A stretch of 64,000 nt of DNA from a phage, in sequence record PZ534511.1. The stretch is one strand, 5' to 3'. The notes under the pieces were generated by a model, which saw only the letters and a list, made by a program, of their open reading frames with translations, was not told the DNA's origin and did no database searches. A program made the translations under genes and the position numbers. Below are positions 1-63,983 of this stretch, piece after piece (position 1 is the stretch's first letter; each line of letters begins with the position of its first letter).

Positions 1-120
1 CAGCGTGGCGGTGAAGTCTTTCATTTCGTCACGTGGTGTTTTAGTGCAATACCAGATCTCAGGCTTGCCGATCTGTAAGTTGCGTAAAAATTCTGTTTTG
101 CCTGTTTTGTTAGTGATCAT
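1..120 (-). CDS. hypothetical protein (N-terminal part; gene continues beyond window start)
   Basis: Minus-strand ATG at 118-120 with GAGGT upstream; translation MITNKTGKTEFLRNLQIGKPEIWYCTKTPRDEMKDFTATL runs off the window edge. Confidence 0.3.
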   Translation of the reverse strand, partial: MITNKTGKTEFLRNLQIGKPEIWYCTKTPRDEMKDFTATL

Positions 121-324
121 TTGCCAACCTCACCCGATACCGTTGGAAGACAAGATCATATTAGACATGGTTGCAATCAGGCCAATACCCAGGGCAATAG
201 CTAGGATCACCGCATCAATTAATTTCTGTTTCATCTTGTTTTCCTCTTCTTGTTCCAGGTGGCGGACCATTCCACCGCCTTATGTATTATGCTTTGTAAG
301 ATGGTTGTTTGTTTTCAAACTATT

Positions 325-504
325 TTAACGATAATCATCGTACGCTTTATTAACCTGGCGAATATAACATTCAAAAGCCAGATCAATAGATTTATATTCA
401 CGGATATACTCACCATAGGAAACCACATACATTTCTATAGCTTCCTCATATGCGAGGAGAATAGAATCCAAGCCTACGATCTCAGTCTTTGCAATAATAG
501 CCAT
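325..504 (-). CDS. hypothetical small protein (~59 aa)
   Basis: Minus-strand ORF below the 60 aa track cutoff, found by manual translation (MAIIAKTEIVGLDSILLAYEEAIEMYVVSY...); co-directional with neighbours. Confidence 0.3.
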   Translation of the reverse strand: MAIIAKTEIVGLDSILLAYEEAIEMYVVSYGEYIREYKSIDLAFECYIRQVNKAYDDYR

Positions 505-689
505 GATTTTTATCCTCTTTGTGGTTGGTGGGGCTTGCCCCTTTGATTTATATACTACAGTCTTATATGGTCATGTCAACTATTTTCAAAAAATTTTTCT
601 GCTGTGATATTTTTCCCGGTAGGGTTCGCTACTTTCAAAATTCTATCATGCACCGGACGCCCAAAAGAATAAGCGCCGTACACAGTAAA

Positions 690-881
690 CTAATAATCGC
701 CGTCAGGTTGTACTATTACCGCCGCATAGGGTACGCCTTTTTCGTTATTGCTGACAAAATAGATCACGTTGCCATTAATAGCCTCGGTGCGTTTAATTTG
801 TTCCATCATGATGATTTGCCTCTCTTTATTTTCATAATTGGGGGCCTTTTCGGCCCCGCCAGGTTTATTTGTTGATAGCAT
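690..881 (-). CDS. hypothetical small protein (likely starts at internal ATGATG near 806)
   Basis: Track ORF; internal Met pair preceded by AGAGAGG RBS; the upstream part overlaps a GGGGCC..GGCCCC hairpin. Confidence 0.3.
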   Translation of the reverse strand: MLSTNKPGGAEKAPNYENKERQIIMMEQIKRTEAINGNVIYFVSNNEKGVPYAAVIVQPDGDY

Positions 882-1149
882 GCAGCGGGAAAGGTACGCC
901 AGGTTGATAGATAACTTTTACAACCTCATCAGGACAAAAGAAGTTGCAGAACTCACCGCAATAGGCCTCATCCTCTTTTAGCTCTTCATCGACATACTCA
1001 AAAAAGTAGTCGATGCTTGGATAATCCTGACCGGGATTATAGTCAACCATTGTCAGGACTAGTTCAAGATCGTTGCGTAGGATATGCATACCCGCTTTTA
1101 AGTATTTTGCTTCCATTTCTACTACATCGCCAACGGTAACAATAGCCAT
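865..1149 (-). CDS. hypothetical acidic early protein
   Basis: Track ORF 94 aa; RBS ATAGGAG upstream; promoter-like TTGCAT..GATAAT plus 5'-UTR hairpin upstream. Confidence 0.5.
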   Translation of the reverse strand: MAIVTVGDVVEMEAKYLKAGMHILRNDLELVLTMVDYNPGQDYPSIDYFFEYVDEELKEDEAYCGEFCNFFCPDEVVKVIYQPGVPFPLHAINK

Positions 1150-1374
1150 GGTTTTAACTCCTATCTATCCGGTTAATGATTGGGGGCCGCCCCCCTGACA
1201 CGTCCTATTATCCATATTGTAGGGCTTGATGCAAGTACTTCTTTAAAAATTTTTTAAGCGCCTTGGGGGCCGCTGTAGCGCCAAAATAATAAAGGCCATG
1301 CAACCGCATAGCCTTTATGTGATTATATCGCTGCAGGCCCTGCCATGGGCCTTATTTTGCATCATTTGCTGGAA

Positions 1375-1695
1375 TTATTCAGAGAAAACATCGTTCACAA
1401 TAGCGATCACAATGCCGCCCACCTTGTCACGGTCAACAATGCACAAATCACCATAGATCATGTGGTAGTCTGGATGATCTTTCACGGAATAGTCAATGAG
1501 TGTCTTCTTATCGTCCAGCTTTTTGACTTCCATGGTCATTGTAATGAATTGATCGTTAAATGCACTATTGCGGAAGATCATTACCTGGCCGCCTTGACAT
1601 CCAGTGATCTCAACTTCCACGCCGTCTACGATCTGACCATCAAAGAAATAAAGATTATTGGCGGGTATAAACATGATCATTGCTCCTTTTTGCAC
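1375..1695 (-). CDS. hypothetical protein
   Basis: Track ORF 106 aa; RBS AAAGGAG before ATG; preceded by a copy of the 45 bp promoter-hairpin repeat. Confidence 0.5.
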   Translation of the reverse strand: MQKGAMIMFIPANNLYFFDGQIVDGVEVEITGCQGGQVMIFRNSAFNDQFITMTMEVKKLDDKKTLIDYSVKDHPDYHMIYGDLCIVDRDKVGGIVIAIVNDVFSE

Positions 1696-1718
1696 TGATT
1701 ATTTTAACAGGGTTTAAA

Positions 1719-1763
1719 TTTACTTTATTGATGGTCCTGGAGTCAAGACCATCTAAAAATAAA
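1719..1763 (-). repeat. 45 bp intergenic promoter-hairpin repeat, copy 1 (GATGGTC..GACCATC variant)
   Basis: Near-identical to copies at 5426-5470 and 6059-6103; contains TTGACT -35-like element and TAAAYT -10-like element on the minus strand; stem carries a compensatory C>T / G>A change. Confidence 0.7.
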
Positions 1764-1765
1764 TT

Positions 1766-2035
1766 TTACAGGCCTACAATCTCTTTGATTCGTTTAACTG
1801 CTGCCTCAGCGCCTTGGGGGTAGAAATTATGATAACCAATCACGCGGGTAATACTGATCGCCACCTGATGATCTTCATAATACCCCTTGAATATTTCTTG
1901 ACCATCAACCAGCACAGCAATTTTTTCTTCTTTTTTGAAGTTAATAACGCGGATATTGTTGCTCATTTTGTTTCTCCTTTTGGAACTTTGTCTATGTGGT
2001 GGGGGAGTGTCTCCCCGTTGATTGTTATTATCCAT
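1766..2035 (-). CDS. hypothetical protein (probable start at internal Met near 1966, MSNNIRVINF...)
   Basis: Track ORF; internal ATG preceded by AAAAGGAGAAAC RBS; promoter TTGCAA-16-GATAAT and GGGGAG..CTCCCC UTR hairpin upstream. Confidence 0.5.
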   Translation of the reverse strand: MDNNNQRGDTPPPHRQSSKRRNKMSNNIRVINFKKEEKIAVLVDGQEIFKGYYEDHQVAISITRVIGYHNFYPQGAEAAVKRIKEIVGL

Positions 2036-2213
2036 ATTCTGGACCGGATTGCAACACCCCGGAAGAAAAATTTTTTGAAAAGTTAGGCCCCCAGGGATCG
2101 GGGGCCGTTATCAGGTGCGTACAGCGATAAAATACATCCCTACGCCTAACAATATTTCAAGGGCGATGATCTCCAGCCATACCATAACACGGCGCGCCTT
2201 ATCGGTGCGGGGC

Positions 2214-2396
2214 TTATCCTTGGGTGTCATCGTCTCCCCCTTTCCTCCTGTTAGTAGTGACGTGGTTTGCAATGGCCCCCAGGAGTATTATCACCACGCA
2301 CATTACAAGAAAAATTATCTCTGTCGTTGTTCGATCCATTGTTATAAAATTCCTTAAGATCAGGCCTGAAAATAAAGCTTTCATTATTGAATCCAT
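2214..2396 (-). CDS. hypothetical small membrane protein (probable start at internal Met near 2339)
   Basis: Track ORF; hydrophobic stretch IIFLVMCVVIILLGAIA; AAGGAA RBS before the internal ATG. Confidence 0.3.
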   Translation of the reverse strand: MDSIMKALFSGLILRNFITMDRTTTEIIFLVMCVVIILLGAIANHVTTNRRKGGDDDTQG

Positions 2397-2449
2397 CCCG
2401 CCAGGCGGCTGGCCTCAAATCTTCACTAAATGGATTAATTAACGTGGTA

Positions 2450-2854
2450 TTATTTAAACGGCTGGCCCACATATTTTCTATTCCTCTCAAATAAGCGATC
2501 CGCCTCAGTTAAACAAATCTCATGGGCGTGATCTCTGGTTTTAGCTTCATCGAAAACCTGTTGTGCAAGGCTGCAACGTAGGGAGACTGGAAGATCACTA
2601 TAATAGGCGTTGACAAACGTTTGAGCGTCGTACAGGTCTGAAAATACTTTACCCTTTCTATTATTCCCCTTGTCAACAATTGCAAGGATAACCAATACAA
2701 TAGTTGCAACCACCCCCAGGAAAATAGATATAATAAACCATAAAAAGGCGGATCTTCCCATCTTGCCAGCGATCCAGGCGTTAAACAAGGCAACCAATAC
2801 AGCCAAAATAATAAATTCCATTCTATGTACCTCTTTTACAGTTCTGATTAACAA
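2450..2854 (-). CDS. hypothetical membrane protein
   Basis: Track ORF; two predicted TM segments (FIILAVLVALFNAWIAG, FLWFIISIFLGVVATIVLVILAIV); probable start at MEFIIL. Confidence 0.5.
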   Translation of the reverse strand: MLIRTVKEVHRMEFIILAVLVALFNAWIAGKMGRSAFLWFIISIFLGVVATIVLVILAIVDKGNNRKGKVFSDLYDAQTFVNAYYSDLPVSLRCSLAQQVFDEAKTRDHAHEICLTEADRLFERNRKYVGQPFK

Positions 2855-2885
2855 TAAGGCGGCAAATATGCCGCCTGTTACCTGA

Positions 2886-3266
2886 TTAAAAATTATCGCC
2901 GTAAATCTTTCCGCTTTCTACCCATACCACCACGCGAGGCATACTATCCCACACGTCTTGTTTTAGATTGAGCGCGTGCAATTCTTCGGTGGTGCTCATA
3001 CCGGGCACGGGCTGATTGTATACTGCAAAACGACCACCCGCATAATCATAGGCTAGAGTTAAATCACACTGGATCATCTTTTTGATCATGGCATTAAGCA
3101 TGGCGTTAGCCGCATACTGATCACGTTTTAAAGGCAACTCTTTGATTAGTTTGCGATAGTTTTCGATATGGTCGCACACTGTTTCACGCGGAAGATCTTT
3201 CATATCCTCGCGAAAGGTAACCAGGTTAAACATAACGGTGTCAATAGCTTTAGTAGTGTTTTTCAT
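2886..3266 (-). CDS. hypothetical protein
   Basis: Track ORF 126 aa; RBS AGAGGAAAAC; promoter TTGCAA-16-TATATT at 3321-3348. Confidence 0.55.
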   Translation of the reverse strand: MKNTTKAIDTVMFNLVTFREDMKDLPRETVCDHIENYRKLIKELPLKRDQYAANAMLNAMIKKMIQCDLTLAYDYAGGRFAVYNQPVPGMSTTEELHALNLKQDVWDSMPRVVVWVESGKIYGDNF

Positions 3267-3320
3267 GATGTTTTCCTCTTTGTTTTGTGTGGGGGCAAAC
3301 GTCTTGCCCCCTTGAGTTTT

Positions 3321-3348
3321 AATATAGCAGGTTTTTAGGTTATTGCAA
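3321..3348 (-). promoter_or_regulatory. sigma70-like promoter (TTGCAA-16-TATATT) followed by GGGGGCAA..TTGCCCCC 5'-UTR hairpin
   Basis: Hexamers and spacing read directly on the minus strand upstream of the 2886..3266 gene. Confidence 0.5.
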
Positions 3349-3356
3349 CACTTTAT

Positions 3357-3980
3357 TTATGAAAAAGTCATCTCGCCATCTTCATCCACATCAAACCGCC
3401 AATCATTGGCCTCGATAAGGCCGATCAGGTTTTCGGTAGTGAATTGTTCAAGATAGGCCCCCTCCAGGTCTACGTAAACCTTGCGGGATAGCTCCCGTAC
3501 CGTCTCGGTGATCAGCTCTTCCAGGTCTTCCACTTTGTTTTCTTGTTTGGCGGTCAGATCTAGCCAGGTGGTATCAATGTATCCGCTTACAGTGTTTTCA
3601 TGGCTGTAATGGCTGTACTTGTCGCGTTCAACACTGGCTGATAACTCGCCATCGTGCATTGTGCCGAACAAGTGACGAATTGATCGGAACTTGGTCAGGG
3701 CCTTTACTTTACGCAAAAATTTTTCTAAATCCACGTTTTCAGCACTGATTGAAGCGCCGTCACCCTGGCACCAAAAGCCGGACCAATGTACTTCGGTATC
3801 TTCAAGGCCGTACTCTGGAAAGATATATTCTTTGTAGTGTTCAATTACACTTTCTGCAAAAAAGTCATCCCCGCTGTGTTCTTCTCTTTCGCGTACCATT
3901 TCAATGGCTTTTTCTTTTTGTTCGTCGGTCAGCACGTCGAAAGATAAATTGTAACCTGTGGTAATGTTAACGGTGGTCAT
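3357..3980 (-). CDS. hypothetical acidic early protein (207 aa)
   Basis: Track ORF; strong RBS AACAGGAGAAAATATC; highly acidic; preceded by promoter TTGACA-16-TATACT. Confidence 0.6.
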   Translation of the reverse strand: MTTVNITTGYNLSFDVLTDEQKEKAIEMVREREEHSGDDFFAESVIEHYKEYIFPEYGLEDTEVHWSGFWCQGDGASISAENVDLEKFLRKVKALTKFRSIRHLFGTMHDGELSASVERDKYSHYSHENTVSGYIDTTWLDLTAKQENKVEDLEELITETVRELSRKVYVDLEGAYLEQFTTENLIGLIEANDWRFDVDEDGEMTFS

Positions 3981-4036
3981 GATATTTTCTCCTGTTTTCT
4001 TTGTTAGTGGCGGGAAGTTTTCCCGTTTACGTGTTT

Positions 4037-4064
4037 AAGTATACTTATCAAGATTTACTTGTCA
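4037..4064 (-). promoter_or_regulatory. sigma70-like promoter (TTGACA-16-TATACT) with downstream GGCGGGAA..TTCCCG 5'-UTR hairpin (4010-4026)
   Basis: Read on the minus strand: TTGACAagtaaatcttgataagTATACT, then hairpin, then RBS and ATG of the 3357..3980 gene. Confidence 0.6.
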
Positions 4065-4315
4065 ACACTATTTTTTAAATTATTGTGGCGCAAAATGTTT
4101 AAAATCTCCTCAACGTCATCAACACGGCGGCAATTTTTAAACGCTACCAATTGCCCCATGATTTTAATCACTGGGCGGCCTTGCCAGTGCCCCTGGAGAA
4201 AGCGCGCCTTGACTTTATCGGTGGAACTATCACGCCACCAAATAGCCTTGTTGTTGCAGTAGTAAAAATTATTCAGGACAACATCAACTTTATCAAAATT
4301 TTTTAATTTACGCAT
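4055..4315 (-). CDS. hypothetical protein
   Basis: Track ORF 86 aa; co-directional early gene. Confidence 0.45.
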   Translation of the reverse strand: MRKLKNFDKVDVVLNNFYYCNNKAIWWRDSSTDKVKARFLQGHWQGRPVIKIMGQLVAFKNCRRVDDVEEILNILRHNNLKNSVDK

Positions 4316-4533
4316 GGCGTTTACTCCTTTCTCTCTTTGATGTGGTTAGTATAGCTAACCTGTTGACGATGTCAATGATATTTTTAACGCCATAAAACGG
4401 CCTTGGGCGATGTTTTCAGGTTAAAGGGGGCGATTGCATAGGTGGGGGCCTTTTTGGCGCTTACAGGGCCAACCAGGGGCGCTATTCGTAGGATAGAAAT
4501 AAAAAGCCCCGCACAATGGCGGGGCGTTGGTTG

Positions 4534-4755
4534 TTATTTGTCTTTATGGCGGTATCGTTCTGCCTGTCGTTCACGTTCCAAAAGTAGGCCGGGCAATTTA
4601 CGATCATAATGATTACGCCAGATCTTCCCAAACCTTTTTGGCTTATTCAGTTTATTGTTACGCTGGCGGCGTTCTGGCAGCTCTTCGGAATCATGAGGGC
4701 GCTTTACAATTTTCTCGAAATTAATTTTCATATATTCCCCCCTTGCTAACTTCAA
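4534..4755 (-). CDS. hypothetical small basic protein
   Basis: Track ORF; Arg/Lys-rich; probable start at MKINFEKIV. Confidence 0.4.
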   Translation of the reverse strand: MKLARGEYMKINFEKIVKRPHDSEELPERRQRNNKLNKPKRFGKIWRNHYDRKLPGLLLERERQAERYRHKDK

Positions 4756-5137
4756 TATTGGCCTGAATAGCCCGGATACGGCGCTTTATAACTTCCTGAT
4801 CTGTGTGATCGTATCCCCAAAAGTCTACAATTTTTGCGCCCCCAGCCTTTAGGCGGTATAGTGTTTCCTGCATTTTGTAAGCCGGGATCGGTCGCGGTGT
4901 TACCTGGTCGCCCTTCTCATTCTTGTACTTGATAATGTAGTCTTCATTGTCGTTGAATACCCAAAATGGGTATTCTGTGAGCGCGTTGCTCTCTTTTTCG
5001 TTTTTAGATTGGATCTTGTTTACAATTAAAGCCGTAGCAATAGCGCCAATAATAAAACTTGCCCCGCTGATCATGTACTTTCTCCTTTCATTGTGTTGAT
5101 AAACTGTCTTTATAGATGGCCCTGCTACCAGGACCAC
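4721..5137 (-). CDS. hypothetical membrane-anchored protein (probable start near 5074, MISGASF...)
   Basis: Track ORF; internal ATG preceded by AAAGGAGAAAG RBS; N-terminal TM helix FIIGAIATALIV. Confidence 0.5.
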   Translation of the reverse strand: MVLVAGPSIKTVYQHNERRKYMISGASFIIGAIATALIVNKIQSKNEKESNALTEYPFWVFNDNEDYIIKYKNEKGDQVTPRPIPAYKMQETLYRLKAGGAKIVDFWGYDHTDQEVIKRRIRAIQANIEVSKGGIYEN

Positions 5138-5149
5138 CGAAAAAACAGC

Positions 5150-5395
5150 TTATTTGACGATACCGACAAAACAGATCCCGCCTTCCCCTATATAGGCAAT
5201 ATCGGTAATTTTATAATTTGTCAAGATCCGCGTGTTCAGATCATTAATAAAATCGGTCATCGCGTTGGTGTAGTTGTCTTCCGTGTCTAAGGCATAATCC
5301 CAGGTGTAAACCTTTTTACGTCCGAAGCCTTTTACCATGATACGGGCGCTTTTGGTGTTGGTGGGCGCATAATATTTTGTGATTAGTGCTGCCAT
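5150..5395 (-). CDS. hypothetical protein
   Basis: Track ORF 81 aa; RBS AATGAGGAG; preceded by 45 bp repeat copy 2. Confidence 0.5.
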   Translation of the reverse strand: MAALITKYYAPTNTKSARIMVKGFGRKKVYTWDYALDTEDNYTNAMTDFINDLNTRILTNYKITDIAYIGEGGICFVGIVK

Positions 5396-5425
5396 GGTTT
5401 TAACTCCTCATTAGTTCAGTGTTAA

Positions 5426-5470
5426 CAGTGTAAAGTTTACTTTATTGATGGCCCTGGAGTCAAGGCCATC
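5426..5470 (-). repeat. 45 bp intergenic promoter-hairpin repeat, copy 2
   Basis: TTTACTTTATTGATGGCCCTGGAGTCAAGGCCATCTAAAAATAAA; identical to copy 3. Confidence 0.7.
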
Positions 5471-5482
5471 TAAAAATAAATT

Positions 5483-5824
5483 TTACTCGTTTTCTTCCAG
5501 CTCTGAAAGCTCTTCTTTCATTTCTTCCAGCTCTGTCTGCAATTCCTGGTATTCTTCATCGTCCTCAATATCCAGGCTGTCGATGTAGTCGCTAAATCCG
5601 CAGCGGTAAGCGATAGGATCTAACTCCTTGAGGATACGCGACGGAAGAAAAGAAATGTTTCCGATCATAATTTCGCCGTAGATCTCGTCTAACCATTCAT
5701 CATAGTTTTCGTCGTACTTGTCCTCGTCGATTTCAAAGTTATCGATCTTATTCTCAAGGTCTGCGATCTGTTTTTTCAGTTCAGCGATCTGCATAGCTTT
5801 TTCTGCGGCGGTCATAGTAGTCAT
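5483..5824 (-). CDS. hypothetical highly acidic coiled-coil early protein (113 aa)
   Basis: Track ORF; Asp/Glu very abundant (EELQTELEEMKEELSELEENE); driven by consensus promoter at 5875-5902. Confidence 0.55.
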   Translation of the reverse strand: MTTMTAAEKAMQIAELKKQIADLENKIDNFEIDEDKYDENYDEWLDEIYGEIMIGNISFLPSRILKELDPIAYRCGFSDYIDSLDIEDDEEYQELQTELEEMKEELSELEENE

Positions 5825-5874
5825 GGTGTTTTTCTCCTTTTGTGTATTCTGGGAAGTTTTCCCGTTTATGTGCT

Positions 5875-5902
5875 TATTATATCGATTTAAGTTAGCTTGT
5901 CA
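5875..5902 (-). promoter_or_regulatory. consensus sigma70-like promoter (TTGACA-16-TATAAT) followed by GGGAAGTTTTCCC 5'-UTR hairpin (5850-5863)
   Basis: Minus strand reads TTGACAagctaacttaaatcgaTATAAT; both hexamers perfect consensus. Confidence 0.65.
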
Positions 5903-6058
5903 ATTAAAAGTTTAAGAAAAATTTTGCGACACCGTTGGCGCTACCCATCAACATTTGCGCCAGGATGTACCCAATGATGCAAACGATAATAGTTACCTTT
6001 GTGTGCTGGCGTGTAGTACTCATCTTTAAGCCCCCCTTTCCGCTCAACTGTGGTTAGT

Positions 6059-6103
6059 TTACTTTATTGATGGCCCTGGAGTCAAGGCCATCTAAAAATA
6101 AAC
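6059..6103 (-). repeat. 45 bp intergenic promoter-hairpin repeat, copy 3
   Basis: Identical to copy 2. Confidence 0.7.
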
Positions 6104-6499
6104 TCAGTAAGTTTTCAGTACTTTCCCGTCCAACCTGTCTAACTGAATCTCAATAGCTGCAGAAAACCTATTGTAAACCACATCGCCCAGGGAGTCCAGC
6201 CAATCTATGACGTTATACACCTGCTCTTTATTCTTGCAAGTCCGGATCCGTTTCATTACGTAAGACGGATCAATATTAGCGCTCTCGTTGTTGTGGTCAT
6301 GCGCCTGGCCTGCTGCGCTAGTTATAGATTTTACAACCACCTGAAAGGGCTTTAAGGTGCCTTTTGCGTTCATCTCACGCGCTTTCGCGGCGCGGTTGTT
6401 GTATGTTACACAACGGTGGCAAATGTTGACCAAATGCATATCAATAATTTTTTCATCGTTTGCCAGTTCGTTCATGATGCGGCGTACGTTCTTATTCAT
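6104..6499 (-). CDS. hypothetical protein
   Basis: Track ORF 131 aa; RBS AAAGGAAAAAAGATC; promoter TTGACA-16-TAAACT at 6549-6576 with 5'-UTR hairpin 6523-6540. Confidence 0.55.
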   Translation of the reverse strand: MNKNVRRIMNELANDEKIIDMHLVNICHRCVTYNNRAAKAREMNAKGTLKPFQVVVKSITSAAGQAHDHNNESANIDPSYVMKRIRTCKNKEQVYNVIDWLDSLGDVVYNRFSAAIEIQLDRLDGKVLKTY

Positions 6500-6548
6500 G
6501 ATCTTTTTTCCTTTGTGTTGGCGGGAAACATTCCCGCCTTTTGTGTAT

Positions 6549-6576
6549 AGTTTACTTGAATTTTGCAGCGTGTCAA
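6549..6576 (-). promoter_or_regulatory. sigma70-like promoter (TTGACA-16-TAAACT) with GGCGGGAA..TTCCCGCC 5'-UTR hairpin
   Basis: Read on the minus strand upstream of the 6104..6499 gene. Confidence 0.55.
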
Positions 6577-6583
6577 TAATTTT

Positions 6584-6982
6584 TTATTCGTGGGCACATG
6601 TTACAATGTGTTTTTTATAGCCCAGGTGGTCAGCAAGTGCCGACAAAAACTCTTCTTCGTAGATCCAGCCGTCGGCAGTGATCCCCATAGCATTTAATGC
6701 GCCCTCAAGTGCTGCGTTAGCTTTATCGTAACCGTGACCGCTCGCCTTGCCGCCAGTATAACCGTACTTATTGTTCTTGTTGTCGTGAATCCAAAACACG
6801 CAGTAGTGAGTGTTCCCGCTGGCGGCGGCATAATACCGGATCTCAGCTACTTCGTGCAAATTATTGTCATCGTCCAGGCCCACCAGATTATAAGCCTTGT
6901 AAAATCCACGATCACGGCGGCAGTTCTTGACATCAGAAAAAGAAAAGTCCGCATTATCAAAATTAAAGGTAGTGGTTTTCAT
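6584..6982 (-). CDS. hypothetical protein
   Basis: Track ORF 132 aa; RBS AAGAGGATAAAATC. Confidence 0.55.
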   Translation of the reverse strand: MKTTTFNFDNADFSFSDVKNCRRDRGFYKAYNLVGLDDDNNLHEVAEIRYYAAASGNTHYCVFWIHDNKNNKYGYTGGKASGHGYDKANAALEGALNAMGITADGWIYEEEFLSALADHLGYKKHIVTCAHE

Positions 6983-7046
6983 GATTTTATCCTCTTAGTG
7001 TCTTTTGTGCTTTTAGTGTATTTGGTGTCGGACTATATGTCAATAC

Positions 7047-7322
7047 TTATTTTTTATTAAACCAGTGGTTGATCTGTCCTTTTGTCAGGGCGCAACGATC
7101 AAGCTGTTGCAGGGTATAGCTATGACCGCGACGAAATTTATAAAGGCCTTGCCCGTTGTTAATGGTTACATCCACCCGGCAAATCACTTGATTGGTGACC
7201 ACCTGGCGAGTGTTGCGACGTACTTTGATCCCGTATGCGTTCATAAATTTATCCTCTTTACTGGTTAGTGCGGTGTTGTTCACCTTGTAGGGTAATAATA
7301 CCATGATTAACCTTGTTGTCAA
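7047..7322 (-). CDS. hypothetical small basic protein (probable start near 7244, MNAYGIKVRR...)
   Basis: Track ORF; internal ATG preceded by AAAGAGGATAAATTT RBS; promoter-like TTGACA..TATTAC upstream. Confidence 0.45.
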   Translation of the reverse strand: MTTRLIMVLLPYKVNNTALTSKEDKFMNAYGIKVRRNTRQVVTNQVICRVDVTINNGQGLYKFRRGHSYTLQQLDRCALTKGQINHWFNKK

Positions 7323-7325
7323 CGA

Positions 7326-7571
7326 CTATTTTAAATTATTTTTATGATAGAATCCACCTGCCGCCCCCCGCCAGGTTAACCACCATTTTTTTTCGTACTC
7401 TTCTTTATGTTCCAACGCTCCCGCCATAACCTTTTCAACCAGGGCGATAGCTTCCGTATCATTAATCACTACATTTCCCAGGCGAGTAGCATTACCTTTC
7501 ATTTTTGTACCTCTTCTGTAGCTGTTTACTTTATAGTGCGGACCTGCCAGGCTGGCCCCGCCAGGTTGCAA
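7326..7571 (-). CDS. hypothetical small protein (probable start near 7502, MKGNATRLGN...)
   Basis: Track ORF; internal ATG preceded by AGAAGAGGTACAAAA RBS; the N-terminal extension overlaps GC-rich hairpin sequence. Confidence 0.4.
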   Translation of the reverse strand: MQPGGASLAGPHYKVNSYRRGTKMKGNATRLGNVVINDTEAIALVEKVMAGALEHKEEYEKKWWLTWRGAAGGFYHKNNLK

Positions 7572-7610
7572 CGGTTAGCGCATCAGGTTAGAAAAATTTT
7601 TTGAAAAGTG

Positions 7611-7639
7611 TTGACAGCGGCCCCGCCAGGCGGCATAAT
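7611..7639 (+). promoter_or_regulatory. plus-strand sigma70-like promoter (TTGACA-17-CATAAT)
   Basis: Near-consensus hexamers with 17 bp spacer; faces away from the minus-strand early genes into a noncoding region. Confidence 0.55.
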
Positions 7640-7645
7640 ATACCT

Positions 7646-7745
7646 ATCGAAAGGACGGCAGGCACCGGTGACGGGGGAGACAACCACCGGGGATGGGCGC
7701 TTCATAAAATGAGAACGGTTATCATTATCATTTAAAAATTTATGC
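7646..7745 (+). ncRNA. candidate small structured RNA, unit A (GC-rich stem-loop with GAGACAA loop motif, then AT-rich hairpin and U-rich tail)
   Basis: Lies just downstream of the 7611-7639 promoter; no ORF with RBS; shares GGGAGACAAYCACCGGG and GAGAAYNNTTATCATT motifs with unit B. Confidence 0.35.
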
Positions 7746-7789
7746 AAAAAATCCTTGCCTTCTTTGTCCTGTGTGATACTATAATAACA

Positions 7790-7880
7790 AGCCGGGGCAG
7801 CAGGGGCCGGGAGACAATCACCGGGCCTGCCCGTTATTCTGCAAACGAGAATAATTATCATTCAAAATTCTAAATAAGAA
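7790..7880 (+). ncRNA. candidate small structured RNA, unit B (paralogue of unit A)
   Basis: Preceded by TTGCCT..TATAAT promoter-like sequence (7755-7785, 19 bp spacer, weaker); stem GGGCAG..CTGCCC enclosing GGCCGGG/CCGGGCC with loop AGACAATCA. Confidence 0.3.
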
Positions 7881-7945
7881 TCCCTCGCATTTAATAAATT
7901 TAATTAGCATGCTAATTACCCTCCGTAACAATTTCCTATAAAACA

Positions 7946-8160
7946 GTGCCCCATAAAATATTCCCATATAGAAATTTTAAAAATCCATTTCTGAAAACGA
8001 AAAATAGATTTCGTCCCCAAAAATTTCAGGTCGAGATCCGGAACGATTTCCAGAAAATCCGATTCAGAAAACGAAAAACAGATCGAGTACTGAGAAATTT
8101 ATCGAGAAAAATTTTCAGAAAATCCAAGCCCTGGAATGAAAAGTAGATCGAGTACCTGGA
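7946..8160. repeat. AT-rich iteron-like direct repeats (GAAAACGAAAAAYAGAT, AGATCGAGTAC x2, CAGAAAATCC x2, AAATCCATTT)
   Basis: Short imperfect direct repeats read directly; the only large noncoding stretch in the window (about 7.87-8.46 kb). Confidence 0.5.
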
Positions 8161-8467
8161 AAGCTGCACCGCAACTTCAAGATAGTGGTTAGATTGTTAC
8201 CATAGAAGGTCAAGGGTAAGTGGAGGAAGTTCTAGTAGAGGGAGGTTAGCATGTGTGGGAAATCTATAATGGTGGTCTGGAATATGGTGCAAACGATAGG
8301 ATGAGCTATTCAGCTTGTCGCGCCTACTCTGAAAAATCCATTTTAGTTTTCGATCCATTTTCTGATTTTCTAAGAATTTTAAAATATCCAGCCCGGTGAA
8401 ATATCAAAAGGAGGAAATCCATTTTAGAAATCCCCCTTATACTTGATATGCCAGGAATTTTCAAGTA

Positions 8468-8797
8468 TCAGTTGTCTTTGTTTTTAGGTTTGTACATGCG
8501 CAGAGGTATGGTCTTTGTAACATTCCATTTCCTCAACCCTTCCCAGCTCCAGTTGTGGGCGTGGTATCCGGTTATGCATGCACTACTGGAGTGATCGTAA
8601 GCATAAGAGAACGCTAAGCGCACCAGGTGGGGCCAGTCCTTCCATGGTTGTGGACCGTAAGCTTTTCTCCAACACCGACACAAACTAAATGTCTCAAGAA
8701 TAGGAAGGATAACAAATCCATACACCGCCACCAGAATAGCCAGCGCAATGATTGTCAGGAATACATACCCTGCAGTTGAAATGATGATCTCTGTCAT
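8468..8797 (-). CDS. hypothetical membrane protein
   Basis: Track ORF 109 aa; N-terminal TM segment IIISTAGYVFLTIIALAILVAVYGFVILPIL. Confidence 0.5.
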   Translation of the reverse strand: MTEIIISTAGYVFLTIIALAILVAVYGFVILPILETFSLCRCWRKAYGPQPWKDWPHLVRLAFSYAYDHSSSACITGYHAHNWSWEGLRKWNVTKTIPLRMYKPKNKDN

Positions 8798-10294: not shown

Positions 10295-10834
10295 TCAACA
10301 CTTTTTGTACTCCACCACGACAATATCTATGTCGAAAGTGGCAAGGTTAATAACGTCCTCTACGTGTTCCAACTTCAAACCGCCTATGCCGCACCCGATC
10401 TTAGGGATGTAGAATGGTAAAGTCGATCCGCTGAATACTTCATTGACTAGCTCAAAGCCTTTCAGGATTGAGAAATACTCAGCATTAGGTCCTGGGTAGA
10501 ACTGGGTATATAGATTGATTCCGTAGACAATACCTATCGGAGATAAGTGCTCCCATCGGGAGAACGCACCCAGTTTACTTAGGCAACCGTATCTAGTCTC
10601 TTTGTCGGCTGACAGTGCTTGAGGAAACTCACGGGCAATCTGTTTTGCTATACCCTTGCCCATTGTGTGGAAGCAGTTACAACCGTGGATCAGGTGACCA
10701 GCACCACTCTTAAAAAGGGAGATTAAATCTCCCTCTACAGTATCAATAATCACGGTAAGCCAGCTCCTCTTCCGCAATTTCAAAAAACTCAGTCCAGCAC
10801 TGTGGCATATTGGAGTTACCGAAGTGGCTTTCAT
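10295..10834 (-). CDS. macro-domain protein (ADP-ribose binding/hydrolase fold); probable GTG start near 10747
   Basis: Motif GAGHLIHGCNCFHTMGKGIAKQIAREFP resembles the macro-domain N-terminal Gly-rich signature; AAGAGGAG RBS precedes an in-frame GTG that overlaps the upstream stop (GTGATTATTGA). Confidence 0.55.
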   Translation of the reverse strand: MKATSVTPICHSAGLSFLKLRKRSWLTVIIDTVEGDLISLFKSGAGHLIHGCNCFHTMGKGIAKQIAREFPQALSADKETRYGCLSKLGAFSRWEHLSPIGIVYGINLYTQFYPGPNAEYFSILKGFELVNEVFSGSTLPFYIPKIGCGIGGLKLEHVEDVINLATFDIDIVVVEYKKC

Positions 10835-11168
10835 AGTAAAGGTTCTTACCGCTAGGAAGGTAGAAATCTGTTACCTCATAAAATCCACAATCGTCGCACT
10901 CACCTTCTTCAAACTTGGCCTTAACCTTAATACCGAGGAAGGTGAAAAGTTTATGGACATCTTCAGTTTCGAACTCCCAGGGAATGTTGTTTTCCGCATC
11001 GGTGTAGAACTGGATCAGCAGACCATTGTCCAGTTTACCAAAATACTCTGTGAAGTAACTTCCTTCCCAGAAATCTTTATGACAAATAATATCCATGCGT
11101 TTGCCCATAATAATGGTGTGAGCGTTTTGGGCATCGTCACGAATCAGTTTTGGCATTTCATAGATCAT
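10743..11168 (-). CDS. hypothetical protein
   Basis: Track ORF 141 aa; stop overlaps the proposed macro-domain start. Confidence 0.5.
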   Translation of the reverse strand: MIYEMPKLIRDDAQNAHTIIMGKRMDIICHKDFWEGSYFTEYFGKLDNGLLIQFYTDAENNIPWEFETEDVHKLFTFLGIKVKAKFEEGECDDCGFYEVTDFYLPSGKNLYYESHFGNSNMPQCWTEFFEIAEEELAYRDY

Positions 11169-11530: not shown

Positions 11531-11947
11531 TCAACAGAAAACTTCAACAAATTCTTCCACAGTTTTAATGTCGTGGGAAAAAGGTTTACGGCTATAACGG
11601 GCAATAGCACTATCAACCACCGCCCGGTACTCCAAATCTTCAGAATATTTCATGAAGCATTGCAGCGTCTCTGGGCAGATAGCTAAATAGCTCCACCACC
11701 CCTCTTCAGATTGGTAGTCGAATCCCATACTCTCCAACCATGAAGCATATACGCCTGCACCTTCAAGCCAGTGAGTATTTTCATCCAGAAACTTGTTAAT
11801 AGACATGTGAGCTTCTAAGCATTTATCCAGCTCTTTTCCGTTAACCAGCCATGCACTGACTGTGGCGCATCCAAGGTCTACAGATTGAGTTGACAGGTTG
11901 TATTGGTCATAGTTCTCAGGTTTAACAATGATATCTTCTAATGTCAT
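11531..11947 (-). CDS. hypothetical protein
   Basis: Track ORF 138 aa; RBS AAGGAGATCTGAAAA. Confidence 0.5.
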   Translation of the reverse strand: MTLEDIIVKPENYDQYNLSTQSVDLGCATVSAWLVNGKELDKCLEAHMSINKFLDENTHWLEGAGVYASWLESMGFDYQSEEGWWSYLAICPETLQCFMKYSEDLEYRAVVDSAIARYSRKPFSHDIKTVEEFVEVFC

Positions 11948-12009: not shown

Positions 12010-12588
12010 TTAGAAGTATTCATAGAGGTATCCATCGGGAGCTGGAATTTTTTCATGAATGTAGTAACCAACATATATTCCGGTTTCTCTGCTGCAAGAG
12101 TTGTGGGATACCCACTCTTTAAGAACGTTGCCATTCATGTCCAACCTCCTTACATTTTTGCACCGTCTACCGCTGGTGCTTCTATGTAACAAAATATCCT
12201 CTGTCTGCTTGTCTTTATTTTCTCCCCAGGTCGTTAAACGGATATTATCAAAAGAGTACCCTTTGAAATCATCTATCCTGTCACAAGAAGGCTTTTTCCT
12301 TTTGTCGTATCCGCTGGCTACCCACTGATCATACAACTCTTTGTAACCGTTCAGGTATAGCCACTCCTTAAACTCTTTTTTGGTGTAAGTCGGAGGAGGG
12401 TGACCTCTTTGCTTGCTGTTGCACTTTTGAGTCTTGTACAACACACGTATTACACCTTTTTCTGAAGAGTCTTTAGCAAATTGGTCAGCCTCCCTGCTGG
12501 CCTTCTTACAGCACTCTTTGCACGTTGATTTGTTGCTGGTATAGAAGTCGGAGGCCTCCTTGTCCTCCCCACAACGTTTGCATTTCAT
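12010..12588 (-). CDS. putative homing-endonuclease-like protein (zinc finger plus degenerate HNH-like motif)
   Basis: N-terminal CKRCG..TCKECC; PSCDRIDDFKGYSFDNIRLTTWGEN resembles an HNH core with His replaced; free-standing between replication genes. Confidence 0.4.
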   Translation of the reverse strand: MKCKRCGEDKEASDFYTSNKSTCKECCKKASREADQFAKDSSEKGVIRVLYKTQKCNSKQRGHPPPTYTKKEFKEWLYLNGYKELYDQWVASGYDKRKKPSCDRIDDFKGYSFDNIRLTTWGENKDKQTEDILLHRSTSGRRCKNVRRLDMNGNVLKEWVSHNSCSRETGIYVGYYIHEKIPAPDGYLYEYF

Positions 12589-12596
12589 AACTGACC

Positions 12597-13823
12597 TTAG
12601 AAAGGGATCGAGTCATCGAACTCATACTGCGCCGGATTCTGATCCATCGGGTCATCTTCCTCATCATTTACAGGAGGAGCGTCTATAGTGTTTTGCTGTG
12701 GAGCAGCTTCCTGCTTGGCAGCTTGAGGTTCTTGATGGTCAGTGGACCCAGCACCGTTCTTGATCCAATCGTACAACGGCTCAGCCAGATTAGTCAAGAC
12801 ATCTTTTGCTTCTGCAGTAATTGCCGCTGCAAAATCCTCAACTTTCGTTTTCTTGTCAATACGGCGACAAGCGTTCAACACCGCATTACCGACACTGGCA
12901 CCTACTTCATCTTCGGTTCGGTTGGTGGCTTGAGCATACTCTTTCTTAAGCTCAATGGTGACTACGTGCAGTGTTTTAGCCACACCTAGTGGGTCGTCTA
13001 CCTTAAACCCGCGATCCAGGATGATTTGCAACGCGTTGATGCTATGTCCCGTCTCCACACCAATAGGGTCGTAAGAGGATTTACGCTTGCCACCAGAGCC
13101 TTGAGTGCCGTTCTCTGCCTTAGGGGGATAGGCTTTGAAACCACTGATAATGTTTCCGGTGTCTTTGTCAACAATGGCTGCAACACGACCACCTACCACC
13201 AGGTCTTTAAGCTGCTCATCAGTTACAACCATAGCACCTTCGCCAATCTTGTGGTCATTAACAGTAACCACGTTGCCAACAATCTGAGTCACATCGCCAT
13301 AGATGCGTAAAACGTCCTGATTGGCATTCTGCTGAGGTTTCTGCTTCTGGCCTTGTGATTGTGCACCTTGTTGCTGTTTTTGCTGCTGAGTCGCTGCTGG
13401 AGCCTCTCCTGCACCCAGCTTGACCATCTTAGCCAGTGAGCCTTTGTAATAGGTCTTACCGTTATGCTCGTTTGCCTTCAAAGGGATATTTACGATCCAT
13501 CCCGGCGTTACGGTTTCCCACTTGTCATCAATTTTAACAGAGACAGAGTCTTGATGACCAGGTTTAAGCAGCTTATCACCCATGCTGATCCAAACTTCTT
13601 CACCACCTTGAAGCAGGTTATCAGAGGAATCCAGTTCAGAAATCAGTAAAGAGATGGTGTGGCTGGATTCAATTTTCTTACCTTGCCACACAGTGGTTTT
13701 AATACCTGTTGTAGGATCAGCACCTTTGATAGGCTTGATGCTGACACGTTTAATCATGCCGTGAGCCAGTAAAACAGTTTCACGCGGATTCATCGGGTTA
13801 GCGAATTGTTGAATAACGCTCAT
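12597..13823 (-). CDS. single-stranded DNA-binding protein-like with acidic C-terminal tail
   Basis: C-terminus YEFDDSIPF matches the canonical SSB acidic tail ending in IPF; Gln-rich linker; location in the replication module. Confidence 0.6.
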   Translation of the reverse strand: MSVIQQFANPMNPRETVLLAHGMIKRVSIKPIKGADPTTGIKTTVWQGKKIESSHTISLLISELDSSDNLLQGGEEVWISMGDKLLKPGHQDSVSVKIDDKWETVTPGWIVNIPLKANEHNGKTYYKGSLAKMVKLGAGEAPAATQQQKQQQGAQSQGQKQKPQQNANQDVLRIYGDVTQIVGNVVTVNDHKIGEGAMVVTDEQLKDLVVGGRVAAIVDKDTGNIISGFKAYPPKAENGTQGSGGKRKSSYDPIGVETGHSINALQIILDRGFKVDDPLGVAKTLHVVTIELKKEYAQATNRTEDEVGASVGNAVLNACRRIDKKTKVEDFAAAITAEAKDVLTNLAEPLYDWIKNGAGSTDHQEPQAAKQEAAPQQNTIDAPPVNDEEDDPMDQNPAQYEFDDSIPF

Positions 13824-15219: not shown

Positions 15220-15536
15220 GCTTCCTCGTCGTCTAAGGAGTTGAAGATTTCACCGAAGTATTCTAAGACTTCTAGCTCCCGTGTGGTGCAGAAAACACAG
15301 TCACCGTTGTCATCCTCGATAACGGCCTCTTTACCCAGCACATCTACTTCAAGTTTATCGTTCAACAGGACGGCCCCTGTGTAAACTTTGTCAGCTGTGC
15401 AGTCCCGAAAAGCGGAGTCCTTCTCCAGATAGTCTGGCTTAACCTTGGCTTTAATTCGTTGATATTGTTTGGTCATTGCTATGGTCTCCTTTTTCTTAGA
15501 TGGGGCCATTATATCTGGCCCCATCTTTCTTGTCAA
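15216..15536 (-). CDS. hypothetical protein, paralogue family A (FRDCT / DxxGDxVxCT motifs)
   Basis: Shares AF[RK]DCT and DD[NE]GD[CS]V[FW]CT motifs with the adjacent 15540..15794 gene. Confidence 0.5.
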   Translation of the reverse strand: MTRKMGPDIMAPSKKKETIAMTKQYQRIKAKVKPDYLEKDSAFRDCTADKVYTGAVLLNDKLEVDVLGKEAVIEDDNGDCVFCTTRELEVLEYFGEIFNSLDDEEA

Positions 15537-32298: not shown

Positions 32299-32330
32299 AA
32301 TGACTCCAAATAGAAAATCCCCGCCGAAGC
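32295..32330 (-). terminator. rho-independent terminator (minus strand)
   Basis: Minus-strand hairpin CCCCGCTTCGGCGGGG followed by ATTTTCTATTT. Confidence 0.55.
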
Positions 32331-32347
32331 GGGGGAGGTCTTAGAAA

Positions 32348-51005: not shown

Positions 51006-52052
51006 TTAAGCATAAGATATAGTGATCCATTGACCATTTACAAGTTTTTGGATAGCACCTGTCCAGTAATCACCTTGATAAGGGTGTTTATAAGCGTAGT
51101 TACCAGAGCACATCACATGTCCAGGGTAGACTCTTGACTCTCTGTAGGTGGTTTTAAAACGGTTTGCTATCCTTACATCATCAACCCCTCTGCTAGGCAT
51201 AGGGATAGTAAGGTTACCGCTACTGTCTGCGCCGTTACCATTTACCCTGCGGACCACGTTTCTTCCACCAACTGTTGCATATTGGCCCCTGACGGTTTCA
51301 TCGTTACAATCAACTCTTCCACCTATTTGAGCGCTTCCGCAGGATTGTTGTCCATTAACAGTGGCTCTTGGTATCGTGACCGCATTGGCATTTGCAGAGG
51401 AACTTTTTGCATCGTTGCATTCAAGATTTCCTTGGATAGCCAGTCTTGCACGGTTGGCAGTTATAGCATTGAGCTTCATAGCTGAAAACACAGGCTGCCC
51501 ACCAGAAGGTTGAAATCTCCAACGGAACCCATCTATTTGGTGAGAAGGATCATCAAGGTCTGTGCCGTCAGCACCACCGATGTTGTCCATAATCCAGAAA
51601 TCCATCGTCGTCTTGTCTGGAGTTATGGTGGTATATATTGCCGCACTGTCTGTTGACGCAGATGCAAACTCGATTCTTTGAAGACCTAAAGTTTGAGTCT
51701 GAGTCATTATGTCTCCAGACTTGTCAACATATAGATCGTCCATTTCTTCAGGTGAGTATACATTGAGAACTTGACGTGCAGCAGCTTTGTCTGGAACGTC
51801 TGCTAGATTATTAGTGACCCTTAAGAATCTATTATCCCATCCTGGGACAACATCTTCTGTTAAATGCTTCAACCACGCAGAAAGCATGTGAAGTTCAAAG
51901 TTAACAACTTCACATGCCATTCTTTGTGTCATATCCCAACCTTTCAATCTCTCTTCTTTTTTTGGTTGAGATTTATTCAACTCTCCCGTATTTTCAAGCA
52001 CAACATCCTGATTGGCCCAAATATCAAGAGGGATAACTGGTTTAGTCATCAC
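51006..52052 (-). CDS. tail fibre protein, paralogue 2 (348 aa)
   Basis: N-terminus (PLDIWANQDVVL..KGWDMTQ) and C-terminus (QKLVNGQWITISYA) conserved with 53064..54104; 30 bp identical DNA at the 3' ends (51011-51040 vs 53069-53098). Confidence 0.6.
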   Translation of the reverse strand: MMTKPVIPLDIWANQDVVLENTGELNKSQPKKEERLKGWDMTQRMACEVVNFELHMLSAWLKHLTEDVVPGWDNRFLRVTNNLADVPDKAAARQVLNVYSPEEMDDLYVDKSGDIMTQTQTLGLQRIEFASASTDSAAIYTTITPDKTTMDFWIMDNIGGADGTDLDDPSHQIDGFRWRFQPSGGQPVFSAMKLNAITANRARLAIQGNLECNDAKSSSANANAVTIPRATVNGQQSCGSAQIGGRVDCNDETVRGQYATVGGRNVVRRVNGNGADSSGNLTIPMPSRGVDDVRIANRFKTTYRESRVYPGHVMCSGNYAYKHPYQGDYWTGAIQKLVNGQWITISYA

Positions 52053-58444: not shown

Positions 58445-58476
58445 GCATAAAAATAAACCCCGCCGAAGCGGGGCTT
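58445..58476 (-). terminator. rho-independent terminator (minus strand) after the gpJ-like gene
   Basis: Minus-strand hairpin GCCCCGCTTCGGCGGGGT (UUCG loop) followed by TTATTTTTAT. Confidence 0.65.
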
Positions 58477-63949: not shown

Positions 63950-63983
63950 ATACAAACAAAAAGCCCCCGCCGAAGCGAGGGCA
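63950..63983 (-). terminator. rho-independent terminator (minus strand) upstream of the minor tail gene block
   Basis: Minus-strand hairpin GCCCTCGCTTCGGCGGGGGC followed by TTTTTGTTTGT. Confidence 0.6.

Follow-up and report, generated by a model that had tools for sequence, protein, structure and literature searches.

A two-turn hairpin repeated between small early genes of an rV5-like coliphage: conserved RNA structure, promoter-like signals within it and exchange of gene cassettes

Introduction

What is the function of a short inverted repeat that a phage carries between several of its small early genes? The question is raised by a 64,000-nucleotide stretch of phage DNA (PZ534511.1; hereafter "the window"), in which an earlier note, made from the letters alone, had pointed to three copies of a 45-bp intergenic element with a hairpin maintained by compensatory substitution, and had proposed that it may be a regulated promoter, an operator or a processing site. 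The window represents the early region of an rV5-like coliphage of the genus Vequintavirus; a search with its first 8 kb matches about 170 phage records, which are 90-95% identical and, with few exceptions, come from rV5-like coliphages (Vequintavirus), with vB_EcoM_Gotham as the closest match (93.7%). Within the first 20 kb the genes lie on the minus strand and are small open reading frames (ORFs) of unknown function with many consensus sigma-70 promoters ahead of them, and the region is the counterpart of the early ORFan-rich region of rV5 (PMC3606486).

The element proves to be a conserved sense-strand structure present in four copies per genome, at which cassettes have been lost, leaving a chimeric repeat, and transferred to a phage of another subfamily. 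As an explanation of its role, a dual-coded intergenic cassette, in which an RNase III-type hairpin, an embedded promoter and a recombination linker would coincide, is favoured tentatively, with a confidence that stops a little short of an even chance.

A hairpin conserved on the sense strand

Allowing up to three mismatches, the 45-mer pattern is matched exactly three times, and not once in 100 shuffles. The sites are 1719-1763 (copy 1, two mismatches), 5436-5480 (copy 2, exact) and 6058-6102 (copy 3, exact); the three matches of the earlier note are real, but its second copy lay 10 nt and its third 1 nt away from these positions. Copies 2 and 3 are identical at 45 of 45 nucleotides and form direct repeats 622 bp apart. 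The search for the element elsewhere, which had been proposed as a check, yielded a diverged fourth copy at 5099-5153 and no further one: a covariance model built from the four window copies and run over the whole 64 kb with its filters off returned nothing beyond them, no other hit falling below E = 1. The fourth copy (type B) shares only about 76% of the core with the other three (type A) and has a different loop and lower stem, with the same fold shape. All four are located between small ORFs of unknown function at 1.7-6.1 kb.

The claim of a 7-bp stem kept by a paired change holds for the pairing, but the stem is considerably longer. In the minus-strand RNA the 7 bp are lengthened by U.G, U-A and G-C pairs to a 10-bp, G+C upper stem with a tetraloop. 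Below it the helix is interrupted by a 2x3 internal loop and then continues as an A/U lower stem of 8-13 bp, whose start adjoins the upstream ORF's stop codon or falls inside it. Folding energies range from -22 to -30 kcal/mol on the minus strand (z -5 to -7.4) and from -17 to -22 kcal/mol on the plus strand. The four copies are among the most stable local sense-strand folds of the first 20 kb; the type B copy is the most stable of them (-30.1 kcal/mol), and the upper stem alone reaches -14 to -16 kcal/mol. The covariance model gives 76-86 bits on the sense strand versus 32-42 bits on the antisense strand.

Conservation was assessed on the same region of 18 GenBank relatives together with IMG/VR and metagenome contigs, a set of 91 sense copies (52 distinct) from 25 genomes. 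The pair positions are paired in 96.3% of cases on the sense strand versus 85.2% on the antisense strand, whereas control registers slid by one to three columns reach 35-56%. The antisense value drops because there are 2.6 G.U pairs per copy, and the conserved wobble pairs become C.A mismatches on the opposite strand. Covariation is seen at pairs 12/53 (G-C, G.U, A-U), 10/55 (C-G, U-A), 13/52 (A-U, U-A) and 9/56 (G-C, A-U, G.U), with full double changes in the lower stem, where the least well-kept pairs are the outermost ones (7/58, 9/56, 10/55). The asymmetric internal loop follows directly after base pair 10 in all 52 distinct copies.

The paired C>T/G>A change reported for copy 1 is real as well and keeps the stem paired, with GATGGTC..GACCATC in place of the GATGGCC..GGCCATC found elsewhere. 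Over 81 nt around copy 1 the best of the 121 GenBank relatives is 97.5% identical, which corresponds to exactly the two paired mismatches; none of the 121 is at 98.8% or 100%, as a single-change intermediate or a carrier of both changes would be, and both changes therefore arose on the lineage of the window phage. The probability that two random substitutions in 81 nt strike both sides of one pair and restore its pairing is about 0.002.

Selection on the structure, as argued in the earlier note, is supported by the 96% pairing in 52 distinct copies, the G-C/G.U/A-U series, the double changes and the conserved wobbles. The difference between 96% sense and 85% antisense pairing indicates that the selected object is an RNA helix of about two turns on the sense strand rather than a DNA palindrome; the relevant strand is the minus (sense) strand. 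The proposal of an operator is unsupported, given that the arms differ by wobble pairs, two stem variants occur in one phage and the helix extends far beyond a 7-bp palindrome.

Promoter-like signals folded into the hairpin

On the minus strand, and behind a T-rich tract, the type A copies spell TTGACT-18-TAAACT (copies 2 and 3) or TTGACT-18-TAAATT (copy 1), so the TTGACT in the loop and the TAAAYT 18 bp downstream that had been described earlier are present in all three. TTGAC is kept in 37 of the 39 distinct type A copies, with T, A or G at position 6 of the hexamer, and many relatives carry TTGACA. TTGACW-18-TAAAYT matches the promoter consensus at 9-10 of 12 positions.

The type B copy has no -35. 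An alternative promoter for it, with TATAAA after the stem, was considered and rejected, as it has neither a usable -35 at 16-18 bp nor a TG extension. Since type B keeps the full hairpin without a -35, it is the structure and not the promoter that defines the family.

Hairpins of unrelated sequence with a comparable layout occur in other places. In Escherichia phage KKE7M (PQ356295; locus L015, 4969-5032) a hairpin unrelated to the element has an A/U lower stem that contains the stop codon of the preceding ORF; above it are a 12-bp upper stem and TTGACA at the apex, with CATAAT 17 bp further on. Salmonella phage SSBI34 (MZ520832), distantly related within the subfamily, carries at least six hairpins, each of about 21 bp, in intergenic spacers right after stop codons. 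In these the promoter TGTTGAC-N17-TATAAT (the Certrevirus type) is embedded so that the lower stem contains the -35 and the apical loop the -10; the upper stems vary among copies while pairing is kept. In the window itself, the loop of an 11-bp hairpin at 15498-15526, AGAUGGGGCC-AGAUAUAAU-GGCCCCAUCU, contains the -10 of the consensus promoter TTGACA-17-TATAAT (15508-15536, minus strand); the stem of this hairpin resembles that of the element and is followed by AAGAAAAAGGAG, without a U-run. An operator common to the element and this stem (AGATGGGGCC..GGCCCCATCT) was rejected, as GATGG and CCATC are separated by 14 nt in one case and by 17 nt in the other. Because it recurs in KKE7M, in SSBI34 and at 15498-15526, the layout is no accident. 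The apex is occupied by the -35 in both the element and KKE7M, whereas SSBI34 and the hairpin at 15498-15526 have the -10 there.

As a whole, the promoter reading is plausible, as the hexamers are present, TTGAC is nearly invariant and KKE7M shows the layout with a consensus promoter, but its score is at chance level and copy 4 lacks it. An account that puts the promoter first would make the element a sigma-70 early promoter whose inverted repeat acts on the DNA, either by binding a dimeric regulator as its operator or by controlling access to the -35 through a cruciform, with the RNA fold as a by-product. The hexamers behind an AT-rich upstream tract, the conserved TTGAC, the PhagePromoter calls on copies 1 and 2 in the Gotham record, a typical spacing of 26-35 nt between the predicted start site and the following start codon and the recurrence of hexamer-centred hairpins in KKE7M, SSBI34 and the window (15498-15526) would all agree with it. 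It is nevertheless judged quite unlikely, since it leaves the full hairpin of type B without a -35 to serve, the conserved G.U pairs leave the DNA arms imperfectly complementary (antisense pairing is 11 points lower), a single protein would have to accept two stem variants per genome, the paired region of about 50 nt including a stop codon is far above the size of an operator, and the element is missing from the stringent promoter list of the rV5 authors.

A broader conjecture, also unlikely though somewhat less so, is that a sigma-70 promoter at the apex of a stop-codon-anchored two-turn hairpin is a general design of ORFan-rich early regions in large virulent myoviruses of enterobacteria (Vequintavirinae and Stephanstirmvirinae), with RNase III cutting read-through transcripts exactly at each promoter. 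If this were true, every cassette would yield the same short message however it is transcribed, and the repeat would insulate the cassette while also serving as a portable recombination linker.

Repeats as recombination linkers

The repeats act as linkers for the gain, loss and transfer of cassettes, a behaviour that the earlier note did not see. The cassette enclosed by copies 3 and 2 makes up, together with one repeat, a 622-bp unit. This unit is absent from the phages magaca and ECP26 and from an IMG/VR locus (L009), each of which retains a single chimeric repeat, flanked on the left as copy 3 is and on the right as copy 2 is. In KKE7M, a Justusliebigvirus and thus a member of another subfamily, the promoter, the 113-aa ORF and the repeat are present at 96-98% identity, and the homology stops at the last base (3' end) of the repeat. 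In addition, paralogous copies within a genome share rare loop variants in eight genomes (permutation p = 0.0006); shared ancestry among the eight reduces the independent sharing events to perhaps three or four.

A metagenome contig, Ga0129313_1000039 (L033 5373-5439 = L032 2764-2830), has a copy-3-type repeat with a 5-nt loop (AUAAC), in which a U-A pair replaces the conserved lower-stem U.G and the 3' flank is different. Its sequence suggests another cassette replacement at the repeat.

Each genome has three type A copies and one type B copy. Type A repeats are found in 121 GenBank phage records, usually in three places each, and in IMG/VR and the JGI metagenomes the specific pattern matches only rV5-like contigs of about 137 kb. 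There was no match in GTDB genomes or in 5,426 E. coli genomes, so the element does not belong to the host or to a prophage. With a free stem, the pattern matches 12 loci in IMG/VR, mostly AT-rich chance matches in giant-virus contigs. The family is therewith limited to one genus plus one transfer. A mobile element resembling a miniature inverted-repeat transposable element (MITE) was considered and rejected, as there are no flanking target duplications and the four copies have a single orientation.

In a further reading the repeats would be functionless young duplicates, kept alike by gene conversion and recombination, with the hairpin as inherited baggage. The identity of copies 2 and 3 over 45 nt, the rare variants shared by paralogues, the loss of the stem in one copy of Gotham (see below) and the confinement of the family to one genus and one transfer are what such duplicates would leave. 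However, types A and B each form 21-23 bp, double changes included, in spite of sequence differences at many positions; among orthologous type B copies the series G-C, G.U, A-U occurs; the private double substitution of copy 1 restores a pair; and unrelated hairpins have the same layout in other phages. In view of these observations, functionless duplication is considered very improbable.

Resemblance to RNase III sites and the favoured explanation

Among the functions proposed in the earlier note, a processing site, more precisely one of ribonuclease III (RNase III) type, is the reading favoured here, as an inference from geometry. Substrates of E. coli RNase III typically span about two helical turns, with at least 11 bp from loop to cut (Pertzev and Nicholson, PMC1540722). 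The distal box adjoining the tetraloop is U-A/U.G, of which the U.G is strictly required, a G/C pair at position 2 of the proximal box blocks binding, and internal loops confine the cutting to one strand; cleavage of R1.1 yields a hairpin of 28 nt (PMC1540722). Folded likewise, the T7 sites R0.5, R1.1 and R1.3 give a 10-bp upper stem, an asymmetric internal loop and a lower stem of 5-8 bp.

With 10 bp and 8-13 bp around the 2x3 loop, the helix of the element has the two-turn length and the loop-to-cut distance of at least 11 bp, and its internal loop lies at the predicted target site (base pair 11), where it would confine cleavage to one strand. In type A the closing G-C pair is followed by U28-A35 and U27.G36, the distal box, and the equivalent of proximal-box position 2 is A21-U42. 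The weak A/U lower stem is kept by compensation, which suggests that the total length of the helix is read and that it does more than block 3' exonucleases.

According to the proposed mechanism, a read-through transcript of the early minus strand would fold at each copy into a hairpin of about two turns, with the upstream ORF's stop codon as its starting point. This hairpin would be recognised by host RNase III, or at least by some reader sensitive to the length of double-stranded RNA, and cut on the 3' side of its internal loop. Cleavage would leave the stable upper hairpin as the end of the upstream mRNA and free the downstream ORF on an RNA of its own, as at the early R-sites of T7. In the DNA of type A copies, the same bases would spell a sigma-70 promoter that fires downstream of the hairpin: the T-rich 5' strand of the lower stem may serve as a UP-like tract, TTGACW stands at the apex, the 3' arm would be the spacer and TAAAYT lies in the 3' strand of the lower stem. 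As near-identical direct repeats flanking ORFan cassettes, the copies would moreover provide patches of homology for deletion, insertion, conversion and passage to other phages.

A simpler role would be that of a passive RNA element with no part for RNase III, one that pauses or attenuates transcription though it lacks a U-tract, or that protects the ends of ORFan messages against 3' exonucleases. The same role was proposed for the stem-loops of T4-type PeSL cassettes (discussed below), and those of RB49 were tested as terminators (PMC2839356); the hairpin stands directly after stop codons, its upper stem is stable at -14 to -16 kcal/mol, and copies 4 and 1 are annotated as terminators in the Murica record. 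Termination in its canonical form does not fit. The upper stem is followed by AAUAAAG and the full helix, after its A/U stem base, by at most UUU; a terminator scan of the window listed 30 terminator-like sites, none of them one of the four copies. A canonical intrinsic terminator was rejected for either strand, as T-rich tracts lie 5' of the stem on both strands, AAUAAAGUAAA follows the stem and there is no U-tract. For the passive role this means that AAUAAAGUAAA takes the place of a U-run and that the scan lists no copy, and the full helix, with its A/U-rich base, is poorly suited to intrinsic termination; a block to exonucleases, for its part, needs neither a compensated lower stem of 8-13 bp nor a fixed position of the internal loop. 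A passive element is thus regarded as rather unlikely. Known RNA families offer no other reading: the whole window had no Rfam family match at gathering or permissive thresholds, the best sub-threshold match at copy 1 being rhtB (24.6 bits against a gathering score of 55).

Several observations weigh against the dual-coded, RNase III-type explanation. For the promoter, a 9/12 match with an 18-bp spacer is expected by chance about 39 times per 20 kb, and nearly all promoter bases double as stem bases, so that sequence conservation cannot separate promoter from structure. For the cleavage, type B has C27-G36 at distal-box position 2 and G21.U42 at the equivalent of proximal-box position 2; by the minimal-substrate rules it should be the poorer RNase III substrate, though it is the best-paired copy. 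The equivalent of proximal-box position 3 is G-C in all copies and A-U in T7. In Gotham (MT682716; locus L001, 7077-7136), a 5-nt deletion removes GGGCC from the 3' arm of copy 3 and destroys the upper stem; it is either a decayed copy or a sequencing error, and a given copy thus appears dispensable. The sampled genomes are only about 5-10% diverged and share descent, which means few independent compensatory events. Finally, the literature that could be searched yielded no cleavage, transcript-end, promoter or transcriptome data for Vequintavirus, nor a description of the element.

Were the dual-coded explanation true, the same 50 bases would do three jobs, as promoter, as RNA-processing or stabilising hairpin and as recombination linker, and it would explain how dozens of tiny ORFan cassettes in rV5-like early regions can be individually expressed yet freely swapped. 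The element supplies exact predicted cut sites as well as a natural pair of variants, type A with a canonical distal box and type B without it. Phages of the rV5 type are widely used in therapy and biocontrol.

Positions, annotation and other features of the window

The positions of the copies and of the signals within them are compiled in Table 1. In public records the element is labelled inconsistently: copies 1 and 2 are a 'promoter' (PhagePromoter) in the Gotham record, copies 4 and 1 are 45-nt 'terminator' features in the Murica record, and the records of HdK5 and of the type phage rV5 carry no annotation at the sites. The present analysis corrects this annotation.

Table 1. Copies of the element, associated signals and neighbouring ORFs (window coordinates unless stated otherwise; MFE, minimum free energy)
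Feature	Position	Strand	Description
Copy 1 (type A)	1716-1766	minus	11-bp A/U lower stem, 2x3 internal loop; 10-bp upper stem GAUGGUCUUG/CAGGACCAUC, loop ACUC, private U-A pair; 84.1 bits
ORF upstream of copy 1	stop codon 1766-1768		89 aa; stop codon abuts the stem
Copy 2 (type A)	5433-5483	minus	MFE -25.6, z -6.4; 85.3 bits
ORF next to copy 2	5483-5824		113 aa; stop codon inside the lower stem of copy 2
ORF next to copies 2 and 4	5150-5395		81 aa; stop codon held in the lower stem of copy 4
Copy 3 (type A)	6056-6104	minus	86.1 bits; begins 1 nt past the stop codon of the 131-aa ORF
ORF next to copy 3	6104-6499		131 aa
ORF downstream of copy 3			39 aa
Copy 4 (type B, diverged)	5099-5153	minus	13-bp lower stem, 10-bp upper stem GGUGGUCCUG/CAGGGCCAUC, loop GUAG, no -35-like hexamer; MFE -30.1 kcal/mol, z -7.4; 76.3 bits
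-35-like TTGACT	1741-1746 (copy 1), 5458-5463 (copy 2), 6080-6085 (copy 3)	minus	apical loop/top of stem
-10-like hexamer	1717-1722 (copy 1, TAAATT), 5434-5439 (copy 2, TAAACT), 6056-6061 (copy 3)	minus	3' strand of lower stem
Predicted RNase III-type cut, copy 2	5443/5444	minus	between CAUCAAU and AAAG, 13 nt 3' of the loop; register of T7 R1.1
Equivalent predicted cuts	1726/1727, 6065/6066, 5111/5112	minus
Cassette between copies 3 and 2	5481-6057	minus	39-aa ORF, consensus promoter TTGACA-16-TATAAT (5903-5876), 113-aa ORF
SSBI34 hairpins (locus L040 coordinates)	about 5938-6007, 7913-7982, 8629-8698, 10826-10895, 11755-11824, 12392-12461, 13174-13243

Some further observations concern the window and its relatives. 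On the minus strand, 4534-4731 encodes a 65-aa ORF of the T7 gene 1.1 protein family (PF08200, E = 2.6e-11); in T7, gene 1.1 lies directly downstream of the RNase III site R1.1. About 20 GenBank records titled 'Campylobacter phage' (MG0656xx) are 93% identical to positions 1-8000 and unannotated, and their host labels look doubtful. At 7962-8162, within a stretch of short ORFs only, there are three loosely similar, GAAAA/TTTC-rich direct repeats of about 62 nt each (63-71% identity, spacing 65-74 nt). An A-rich tract followed by CCCCGCCGAAGCGGGG occurs in three copies (32307-32335, 58446-58474 and 63953-63981), which on the opposite strand resemble ordinary GNRA-type terminator hairpins. Two pairs of segments about 2.06 kb apart, 51007-51068 with 53065-53126 and 51508-51535 with 53581-53608, are 84-86% similar, which suggests tandem paralogous genes.

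Comparison with known systems

The closest counterparts of the element in terms of genome evolution are the promoter-early stem-loops (PeSL), the regulatory cassettes of T4-type phages (Arbiol et al. 2010, PMC2839356; Comeau et al. 2014, PMC4122927). Like these, it is a composite repeat between ORFans in a plastic early region, in which an AT-rich tract, a sigma-70-like promoter (putative in the element) and a stem-loop span the distance from stop codon to start codon, and adjacent copies recombine, removing or adding ORFan cassettes with a chimeric copy left behind, and are exchanged between phages. What characterises a PeSL is accordingly found here in part: the element is a composite intergenic repeat of an ORFan-rich plastic region with indels that leave a chimeric repeat, the counterpart of the strong sigma-70-like promoter is a chance-level match of 9-10/12, in three of four copies and with a T-rich tract upstream, and it has no stem-loop that acts as a terminator upstream of the promoter. 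In a PeSL the stem-loop precedes both the AT tract and the -35 and is interpreted as a terminator, whereas the element has its -35 in the apical loop, its -10 in the lower stem and no U-run. Its helix measures about two turns with a fixed internal loop, and it belongs to the Vequintavirinae, not to T4-like phages, with only four copies per genome.

In its RNA anatomy the element resembles the R-sites of T7 (R0.3, R0.5, R1, R1.1 and R1.3), which are likewise intergenic, lie in early transcripts of the host polymerase and share their spacer with a nearby promoter. In both, a tetraloop caps an upper stem of 10 bp, and below it come an asymmetric internal loop with its larger side 3' and a lower stem. 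R1.1 shares with the element also the U-A and U.G pairs beside the loop-closing pair. There is no sequence homology, however; the internal loop is 2x3 in the element and 4x5 in T7, the lower stem is longer and almost purely A/U, and the putative promoter lies within the hairpin, whereas that of T7 lies beside it. Type B, moreover, is without a canonical distal box, and cleavage of the element is only predicted.

A third relative is the early promoter motif of Certrevirus, AAAA(N3-4)TGTTGAC(N17-19)TATAAT (Buttimer et al. 2020, PMC7344957), which recurs as an early promoter of sigma-70 type in the early, ORFan-rich part of genomes of the same subfamily and is embedded in hairpins in SSBI34; a hairpin at the motif is not mentioned in that paper (PMC7344957). 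It differs from the element in sequence and in having the -10, not the -35, in the loop.

The element thus works like a PeSL with regard to genome evolution and like a T7-type RNase III site with regard to RNA anatomy, and membership of neither group is claimed. Its promoter-like signals are folded into the hairpin instead of standing beside it, and it is best regarded as a variant of known phage elements and not as a new kind of system.

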